From the NCBI RefSeq assembly GCF_003334315.1, contig NZ_QOWR01000087.1: DNA of 10,895 bases; one strand, 5' to 3'. This DNA is from Escherichia coli (GTDB lineage Bacteria > Pseudomonadota > Gammaproteobacteria > Enterobacterales > Enterobacteriaceae). Below are positions 2,357 to 3,318 of this stretch, piece by piece. Both the position numbers and the translations under genes were made by a program. Below the pieces are notes generated by a model. That model was not told the DNA's origin, did not search any database, and worked only from the letters and a program-made list of their open reading frames with translations. How positions within the stretch are numbered: position 1 is the first letter of the stretch; each line of letters opens with the position of its first letter.

Positions 2357-2962
2357 TTACTTAGTTTTCAGATCATTTTTAACGCTTTTCACACCATCTA
2401 CCGCTTTGGCGATACTTTCAGCACGGTCACTTTGTGCCTGAGAATCTACGGTACCGGAGAGCTGAACCACGCCATCGGTGGTTTCAACTTTCACATGACG
2501 GGAAGGGACGATATCGTCCGCCAGCAGTTTGGCTTTGATTTCACTGGTGGTGGCGGTGTCACCCGCGTAGCCCTTCACCGAGCCTTCTTTAGCGTCGCGA
2601 ACGTGCAGTTTGTCGCTGACAGAGGTCACCCCTTCAACGCCTTTCGCCACTTTCACTGCCTCTTCGGCCTGAGCCTGGCTTTCAACGAAACCGCTCAGGG
2701 TCACGACTTTTTGATCGGTTTTGACAGAGATATCGGTGCTCTTGATGTTGTCATGATCCACCAGGGCCGCCTTCACTTTCGCGGTGATGGCGCTGTCATC
2801 CATGAAATTACCGACTTTATTCATAGAGCTATCGACTTTTTGCCCTGCGCTTTCATTGGTAGTCTGCGCGTTGTTTTCCGCGTAGGCAGAGCCTGTCGCG
2901 ACGGCAGAGGTCAACATTACAGCCAGCAGAGTTTTCGAAATCTTCAGTCTTGTCATAGTCAT
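2357..2962 (-). CDS. osmY: Osmotically inducible periplasmic protein OsmY (two BON domains)
   Basis: 201-aa product starting [28 protein letters not shown] (signal peptide, AYA cleavage site) followed by two BON-like repeats. ATG at 2960-2962 is preceded by AGGAATAAATCG. The 227-aa track ORF starts further upstream without an RBS. Confidence 0.93.
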
Positions 2963-3206
2963 CGATTTATTCCTGTAAGTTTGCTCGTAATTTGAGCCTG
3001 GCAACACGAGGTTGCATTGCTGAATAGGGAGAGACTTCACCCTCTACAGAAGTCAATGGTCGCCATCACAAAAGCGATGGGTGATGAATAACGACCATTA
3101 CAGCCTCTGAATCAGTTATTAATATCGGTAGAATGACAATCTACGGCTTTAGATACTGATATCTACGCATTGAACGGTATTTAACGCCGTCAGAAATGTC
3201 ATTACT

Positions 3207-3250
3207 TTGTTAAATATAGATCACAATTTTGAAACCGCTCGGGATATCAG
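3207..3250 (-). promoter_or_regulatory. osmY sigma-S-dependent promoter region with overlapping CRP-like half-site
   Basis: Minus-strand sequence cccgagcggtttcaaaattgtgatctatatttaacaa matches my recollection of the published osmY promoter. The -10 element is CTATATT (rc of 3213-3219), with the C at -13 typical of RpoS promoters, and TGTGA falls within the spacer. Implied leader to the ATG at 2962 is about 240 nt. Confidence 0.55.
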
Positions 3251-3318
3251 CGAAAACATAAGCAAAAGTGAATGTTTTAAGAACATTCCGTAAGCGGCTA
3301 ATAAGGAAGGGAAATTGA

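Follow-up and report, generated by a model that had tools for sequence, protein, structure and literature searches.

The osmY gene of Escherichia coli raises the question of where its transcription begins and what is encoded, in sequence or in structure, by the long stretch of RNA that precedes its start codon. This question was examined in a window of 10,895 nucleotides (the whole stretch of DNA analysed, from contig NZ_QOWR01000087.1 of assembly GCF_003334315.1), which contains the E. coli prfC-osmY region, annotated as prfC followed by osmY in matching chromosomes. The 521 bases around the promoter and leader are 100% identical to many E. coli chromosomes and are present in 5424 of 5426 complete genomes. 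In the window, the intergenic region between the two genes measures 392 nt, and window position p converts to 4,611,396 + (2962 - p) in MG1655. The allele is not that of K-12, from which it differs by four substitutions in the leader (3203, 3142, 3080 and 2978). For comparison, the osmY locus was collected from 80 Enterobacteriaceae species; prfC lies upstream of osmY in all 80, with an intergenic distance of 298-415 nt in nearly all. The coordinates of the features discussed below are collected in Table 1.

Table 1. Features of the prfC-osmY intergenic region and its flanks, in window coordinates.
Feature	Position	Strand	Basis or remark
prfC	ends 3355	minus	
Conserved upstream block CTTATTAGCCGCTTACGGAATGTTCTTAAA	3277-3305	minus	about -100 to -72 from +1
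-35 region TCCCGAGCG	3236-3244	minus	poor match to TTGACA; named as the osmY -35 in PMC9764084
CRP site, 22-mer AATTGTGATCTATATTTAACAA	3228-3207	minus	left half TGTGA at 3225-3221; overlaps the -10
Extended -10 CTATATT, C directly 5' of TATATT	3219-3213	minus	sequence reading
A/T-rich TAACAAA after the -10 CTATATT		minus	joint reading TCTATATTTAA, close to the sigma-S consensus
Transcription start, most likely G3205 (MG1655 4,611,153)	3204-3206	minus	PMC6917491 numbering
5'-terminal stem-loop of osmY mRNA, about 78 nt	3127-3205	minus	folding, covariation, covariance model
Conserved AU-rich box CGAUAUUAAUAACUG	3127-3113	minus	single-stranded, directly 3' of the 5' stem-loop
Lineage-variable middle of the leader	about 3026-3100	minus	gapped in 40-70% of species
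Hairpin b, GCAAC-CUCGU-GUUGC	3015-3001	minus	covariation
Hairpin c, GCUC-AAAUUAC-GAGC	2997-2983	minus	covariation
Shine-Dalgarno AGGA, 8-nt spacer, osmY ATG	2974-2971 (AGGA); 2962-2960 (ATG)	minus	
osmY ORF	ATG 2962-2960, stop 2357	minus	

The extended -10 element was evaluated first by its sequence and then by its conservation. The sigma-S consensus in this region reads KCTAYRCTTAA, and TCTATATTTAA at 3220-3210 fits it at 10 of 11 positions. The heptamer CTATATT taken by itself is not significant, with two occurrences in the window against 0.76 expected and a count reached in 36 of 200 shuffles. A scan with a generic sigma-70 consensus did not call the osmY promoter on the minus strand, because its -35 is poor, and called no other promoter on that strand; a poor -35 is typical of sigma-S promoters. 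Across species, CTATATTTAAC is found upstream of osmY without change in 79 of the 80 Enterobacteriaceae. It falls within the best-conserved block of the whole intergenic alignment, ATTGTGATCTATATTTAACAAAGT.

Published experiments on this DNA point the same way. A fragment from -107 to +50 (window 3313-3156) was transcribed with sigma-S RNA polymerase, and in a duplex from -66 to +27 (window 3270-3178) the thymines at -9 to -7 were permanganate-reactive in the open complex (PMC6917491); these KMnO4-reactive positions correspond to the TTT of CTATATTT in the window. Additionally, the "cognate osmY promoter" was rebuilt with TCCCGAGCGA at the -35 and with TAACAAA after the -10, placed between the -10 and the transcription start (PMC9764084, citing Yim 1994 and Becker & Hengge-Aronis 2001), and both sequences occur in the window at the matching places. 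In Salmonella, osmY mRNA is absent from an rpoS mutant (PMC3333887) and RpoS is enriched at osmY by ChIP (PMC3753932). The case for a real promoter thus rests on conservation together with published experiments on the same DNA. The first-pass annotation, made from the sequence alone, had named CTATATT as the best promoter match, about 250 bp from the osmY ATG; this is borne out by the position of the element (251 nt from the end of the -10 to the ATG), by its invariance and by the published sigma-S transcription.

The site is osmYp, the already characterised RpoS-dependent promoter of E. coli osmY, and both the promoter and its long leader were already known. Compared with osmYp of E. coli K-12 (Yim et al. 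1994; Lange et al. 1993; Colland et al. 2000), the window holds the same locus with the same elements, namely the -35 region, CTATATT, TAACAAA and a start near MG1655 4,611,153, as well as the sigma-S dependence and the repression by CRP, IHF and Lrp; nothing substantial sets it apart beyond the four leader substitutions. Mechanistically, sigma-S RNA polymerase recognises the extended -10 together with the A/T-rich discriminator, with no good -35 required, and transcription begins at about G3205.

Elements that may act on this promoter were observed both upstream of it and within it. The upstream block at 3277-3305 shows 80-100% identity at most positions among 81 sequences and is better conserved than the -35 region. 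Judged from this sequence conservation, it probably represents one or more sites for a transcription factor or nucleoid protein. It is also contained in the amplicon used for IHF ChIP-qPCR at osmY. On a separate point, the IHF coordinates 4610912-4611001 given in PMC8407004 are not reconcilable with their intergenic label under NC_000913.3 numbering.

The CRP 22-mer matches 14 of 22 consensus positions (TGTGA-N6-TCACA), with a perfect left half, TGTGATCTA, and a right half, TTTAA, that agrees at two of five. Its centre falls at -12.5 if +1 is G3205, and Colland and co-workers reportedly placed the centre of the site at -12.5. The half-site is less conserved than the -10 element: of 79 species, 41 have TGTGA and 54 its GTGA core. 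Since the site overlaps the -10, repression by occlusion is the obvious mechanism; cAMP-CRP bound where the strong half TGTGA abuts the -10 would compete with the polymerase. The Hengge laboratory describes cAMP-CRP, IHF and Lrp as direct repressors of osmY (PMC6119863, citing Colland 2000). The earlier reading of a TGTGA motif as consistent with CRP repression agrees both with the position of the motif, directly 5' of CTATATT, and with this report. According to the literature, CRP, IHF and Lrp together keep the osmY promoter down until sigma-S is abundant.

The first transcribed nucleotide was set at G3205 from the thymine stretch at -9 to -7, while the construct ends given in PMC6917491 lead to 3204 or 3206; the position is taken from secondary descriptions of the mapping, whose numbering differs by 1 nt either way. 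The osmY leader accordingly measures about 243 nt (242-244). The Hengge laboratory fusions treat the whole of this segment as 5'-untranslated region (PMC6119863). In all species examined, CTATATTTAAC lies 141-262 nt upstream of the osmY ATG, so that the leader is long everywhere, and the unusual length remarked on in the first-pass annotation holds for E. coli and for every relative examined. The leader lengths fall into classes of about 148, 183-196 and 228-262 nt, because a segment at about 3100-3026 is missing in many lineages.

Folding of the leader, a check proposed with the first-pass annotation, gave -71.1 kcal/mol for E. coli (z = -3.09). That annotation had identified no specific structure in the leader; folding and comparison reveal a conserved 5' stem-loop, an AU-rich box and covarying hairpins. 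In silico, the leader is predicted to be a modular structured RNA made up of the stem-loop, the AU-rich box, a lineage-variable insert and two covarying hairpins. The stem-loop begins at the first or second transcribed nucleotide, and the last hairpins end 9 nt before the exposed Shine-Dalgarno sequence.

The most extensive of these elements is the 5'-terminal stem-loop. The segment from +2 to +80 folds as a single long hairpin in every species, despite stems that diverge in sequence (for instance, GUAAUGACAUUUCUGACGGC... in E. coli, GUGUUUAGCACCGGGCGUGGAUGA... in Enterobacter and CCAGUGACAAAUUGG... in Buttiauxella). A semi-conserved motif, CUGUUCAAUGCGUG, occupies its apex, and the minimum-energy version in E. 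coli spans 3206-3130. RNAalifold, applied to a plain MAFFT alignment of +1 to +100, returned no consensus structure, as the register of the stems shifts from clade to clade. Column-pair statistics from single-sequence folds and a held-out covariance model were used in its place. When the single-sequence folds of 63 distinct sequences were mapped on the ungapped alignment, one dominant register was obtained. In this register, 63.8% of the cells are paired in the 63 species, against 37-50% when the partners are slid, and the covariation score is 0.326 against 0.13-0.20 (none of 500 shuffles was as high). Furthermore, 285 cells are changed on both sides, compared with 127-177 in the slid controls, and up to six pair types occur at single positions. 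The mean folding z-score of the stem-loop is -3.7, with 83% of species below -2, while 124 prfC coding windows of the same length from the same genomes gave a mean of +0.13 and 3% below -2.

A covariance model of the 5' element was trained on 24 species and tested on 24 held-out species, in which it located the element at the same place. In the window, which was among the held-out sequences, the hit covers 3112-3206 on the minus strand (54.7 bits, E 5e-9). The held-out alignment, which leans towards structure through being fitted to the model, has 68.6% of its cells paired against 37-47% when slid, and both partners have changed in 22 of 31 pairs. Only 64-69% of cells thus pair in the consensus 5' structure. 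In the stem, G.U pairs are 2 to 2.8-fold commoner than A.C mismatches, which points to selection on the osmY-sense RNA. The stem-loop also sits at the very end of the transcript: in whole-leader folds starting at +1 = G (within 1 nt either way), no nucleotide is left unpaired at the 5' end in 50 of the 70 distinct leaders, and at most two are in 56; the mean pairing probability of nucleotides 1-3 is 0.78. The window allele has two unpaired nucleotides at this end. The E. coli hairpin is among the weaker and more interrupted ones, with 19 of the 31 consensus pairs and a longest uninterrupted helix of 7 bp.

The AU-rich box that follows the stem-loop shows 70-100% identity across species and is unpaired in most folds. 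Based on sequence comparison, the predicted stem-loop and the box have solid support, and their interest is modest. Beyond the box, species whose leaders measure about 148 nt lack the variable middle, which in E. coli is predicted to form two hairpins, at 3096-3058 and 3043-3026. The possibility that this middle segment is a mobile or repeated element was considered and rejected, as it occurs at a median of one place per genome.

Conservation returns towards the start codon. The sequence ACAGGAAUAnAUCGAUG at the Shine-Dalgarno and start region is nearly invariant, and hairpins b and c, located just upstream, have 81.5% of their cells paired against 22-35% when slid, with changes on both sides in 9 of 10 pairs. 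Hairpin c is paired in 91% of cells, and its U-A pair is replaced by C-G in 14 species. This part of the leader corresponds to the Rfam family RF03036, "osmY RNA". The match in the window covers 2960-3018 and scores 17.8 bits (E 0.08-0.34), below the gathering threshold of 46.9. Among 40 relatives, 10 have a match at the same position with 22-33 bits (best 33.2), and the threshold is reached in none. According to the family description, the motif is reportedly not predicted in E. coli. RF03036 comes from a survey of 224 candidate RNAs (Weinberg et al. 2017), of which the text and supplements make no mention of osmY. The family and the E. coli leader share the location, which is the last 60-70 nt up to and including the osmY AUG, and the order of elements, two short hairpins and then AAAC..AGGA..AUCGAUG, while the E. 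coli stems are shorter and poorer in G+C. E. coli carries what this comparison of sequences identifies as a degenerate homologue of RF03036, not a member by the Rfam criterion.

Other types of element were also sought in the leader. Apart from RF03036 below its threshold, the Rfam search gave only snoRNA hits attributable to chance (E > 1), and no riboswitch or catalogued cis-regulatory family. The 5' stem-loop therefore appears to be uncatalogued, a second and larger conserved RNA element outside Rfam. No terminator-like site, as would be expected of an intrinsic terminator or attenuator, was detected on the minus strand between 2300 and 3500; the 5' hairpin is followed by CCGAUAUUAAUAA. Upstream open reading frames were rejected as coding. 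A 29-aa frame with a TTG start (3056-2967) and a GTG (3040) that shares the osmY reading frame both lie in unconserved sequence, and a 17-codon AUG frame at +5, read by eye, is cut to two codons in Salmonella. A literature search for the osmY leader or UTR, or for a link to an sRNA or Hfq, yielded nothing relevant.

Taken as a whole, the locus is very probably best explained as osmYp followed by a structured leader, and it is the function of the leader that we infer. The 5' hairpin of ompA lengthens the life of its mRNA by blocking decay that depends on the 5' end, as established by the Belasco laboratory. The osmY leader resembles the ompA 5' UTR in its arrangement: the transcript opens with a stem-loop, continues with an AU-rich single strand and has one or more hairpins just upstream of an exposed Shine-Dalgarno sequence. 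Their sequences are unrelated, and osmY has by far the longer hairpin, at about 78 nt, and a leader of almost double the length; stabilisation is established for ompA, whereas for osmY it is suggested by analogy. On this analogy, we tentatively propose, as a serious possibility that could readily prove wrong, that the 5' stem-loop shields the mRNA from the 5'-end-dependent decay that involves RppH and RNase E, and that the hairpins adjoining the Shine-Dalgarno sequence keep the ribosome-binding site insulated. The joint outcome would be a long-lived and well-translated osmY message in stationary phase or under osmotic stress.

A broader proposal, which we hold to be doubtful, is that the leader is a post-transcriptional module in which the stem-loop with CUGUUCAAUGCGUG and the AU-rich box are bound by RNase III, RNase E or an RNA-binding protein, and set stability or translation according to osmolarity or growth phase, independently of sigma-S. 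Such a module may have been overlooked, since osmY serves mainly as a read-out of RpoS activity. A more specific role for RNase III can be considered in the light of the bdm, proU and betT mRNAs, which are reported to be stabilised when RNase III activity falls after an osmotic upshift. Like them, osmY is osmotically induced, has a long imperfect duplex in its transcript and changes its half-life with stress. The 5' hairpin would then be an RNase III substrate whose cleavage starts the decay of osmY mRNA at low osmolarity, and an osmotic upshift, by lowering RNase III, would stabilise the message. The median of 28 bp in the 5' domain and the presence there, in 20 of 70 species, of unbroken helices measuring 11-19 bp are compatible with this, as are the reported down-regulation of RNase III by osmotic stress and the more than 3-fold rise in osmY mRNA half-life on stress (PMC9764084, where it is ascribed to poly(A) polymerase). 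The E. coli helix, however, is heavily interrupted, with no run longer than 7 bp, and osmY goes unmentioned in the main text of the study on RNase III targets. We therefore regard cleavage by RNase III as unlikely. A translational switch appears quite unlikely. In it, the AU-rich box would pair with the segment from the Shine-Dalgarno sequence to the start codon (about 2975-2963) and close the ribosome-binding site, which would be opened by a factor such as an sRNA, Hfq, ionic conditions or a cold-shock protein. No other single-stranded segments of the leader are as well conserved as these two, and in the ensembles of E. coli and a few relatives the box pairs with the spacer at p = 0.45-0.8. 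For most species, however, the folds do not predict this pairing, with mean probabilities of 0.13 (Shine-Dalgarno sequence) and 0.21 (spacer), and average pairing of the Shine-Dalgarno sequence reaches only about 43%. Both segments are also too invariant for a covariation test, and the literature search gave no sRNA or Hfq link to the osmY leader. The rpoS leader offers a parallel as a long leader on a general-stress gene with possible occlusion of the ribosome-binding site by long-range pairing (for osmY, in E. coli only), but the rpoS switch is conserved and is opened by DsrA, RprA and ArcZ with Hfq, whereas the osmY pairing is not conserved.

The conserved features downstream of the start could also be read at the level of DNA, as sites for IHF, Lrp or CRP or for a poised polymerase, with the hairpin as a by-product of palindromic sites. 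Repression of osmY by three DNA-binding proteins with extended footprints would be in line with this reading, and the apical motif CTGTTCAATGCGTG and the AU-rich box are indeed conserved as sequence. The stem arms, in contrast, keep their complementarity and not their sequence, with up to six pair types and both-side changes in 22-23 of 31 pairs; the excess of G.U over A.C indicates selection on one RNA strand, and the folding z-scores are far below those of the controls. These observations make an explanation by DNA sites very unlikely. The mRNA with the long leader would be a minor species if most osmY mRNA came from a second promoter near the ATG. This is scarcely credible: the minus strand has no promoter-like site from 3205 to 2963, indels are frequent and conservation is poor in the middle of the leader, and the published fusions take the whole segment as 5' UTR (PMC6119863).

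For the biology of osmY, the promoter adds nothing new, being a standard model sigma-S promoter. The comparison of the leader adds Escherichia, with a degenerate version, to the range of the Rfam "osmY RNA" motif. RpoS activity is widely gauged with osmY fusions, and several of these include the leader together with the first codons. If the elements of the leader do alter stability or translation, osmY reporters would partly measure post-transcriptional effects, beyond the activity of RpoS.

Upstream of the osmY promoter, the CTTATTAGCCGCTTACGGAATGTTCTTAAA block retained 80-100% identity across the 80 Enterobacteriaceae compared, among which the -35 region of osmY was less conserved than this block. 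The block encompasses a palindrome, AATGTTCTTAAAACATT, together with two strings that represent candidate protein-binding sites: an IHF-like TATTAG-N4-TTA and an RcsB box-like string, the latter judged against the RcsB box consensus. The features described here are listed in the table.

Features of the osmY locus, in window coordinates
Feature	Position	Strand	Remarks
G+C-rich hairpin GGGCGCGGTAGCCGCTGCGCCC	3341-3320	-	14 nt past the prfC stop
Conserved block CTTATTAGCCGCTTACGGAATGTTCTTAAA	3305-3277	-	~-100 to -72 relative to the osmY start
Apical motif CUGUUCAAUGCGUG	3176-3163	-	Apex of the osmY 5' stem-loop; columns 31-44 of alignment A1
Lineage-specific indel	~3100-3000	-	Middle of the osmY leader; loci L007, L024 and others
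Perfect 10-bp tandem direct repeat GTAATTCGTC GTAATTCGTC	2360-2341	-	
Small ORF beginning ATGTTTCGTTGGGGC	2230	-	Downstream of osmY; ytjA in the MG1655 annotation

An IHF GeF-seq footprint at MG1655 4610912-4611001 is labelled 'Intergenic (prfC-osmY)' in the supplement of PMC8407004, whose ChIP-qPCR primers flank window positions 3321-3220. In NC_000913.3 numbering, however, the footprint corresponds to 3446-3357 (minus strand), the final 90 nt of prfC, and thus lies outside the prfC-osmY intergenic region, contrary to its label. This mismatch may be attributed either to the reference version or to the labelling. The GGGCGCGGTAGCCGCTGCGCCC hairpin downstream of prfC is conserved among the species. 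A T tract is absent and the terminator scan makes no call there; the hairpin presumably represents a structure of the prfC 3' end.

At the other end of osmY, the stop codon TAA (2359-2357) lies inside the first GTAATTCGTC copy, and the tandem repeat is followed on its 3' side by a hairpin, CCTCCCGA-ACTT-TGTCGGGAGG, with no T run after it. The ytjA ORF, which encodes a DUF1328 protein according to the MG1655 annotation, starts ~126 nt past the osmY stop.

The length of the osmY leader differed among lineages, with ~148 nt in the Citrobacter freundii group, Enterobacter, Lelliottia, and Leclercia and ~245-262 nt in Escherichia, Salmonella, the C. amalonaticus group, and Cedecea. Within E. coli genomes, the leader-middle segment does not behave as a repeated element. 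Between the window allele and K-12 MG1655, four leader differences were observed, at 3203, 3142, 3080, and 2978. At 3203, close to where the 5' stem is anchored at its base, the alleles differ by A/G; an A-U pair thereby becomes G.U, and pairing is retained. In the cross-species alignment, CUGUUCAAUGCGUG was kept as sequence at the apex of this stem-loop, whereas the stem beneath it covaries, which suggests that the apex may be a loop recognized by some protein or RNA.
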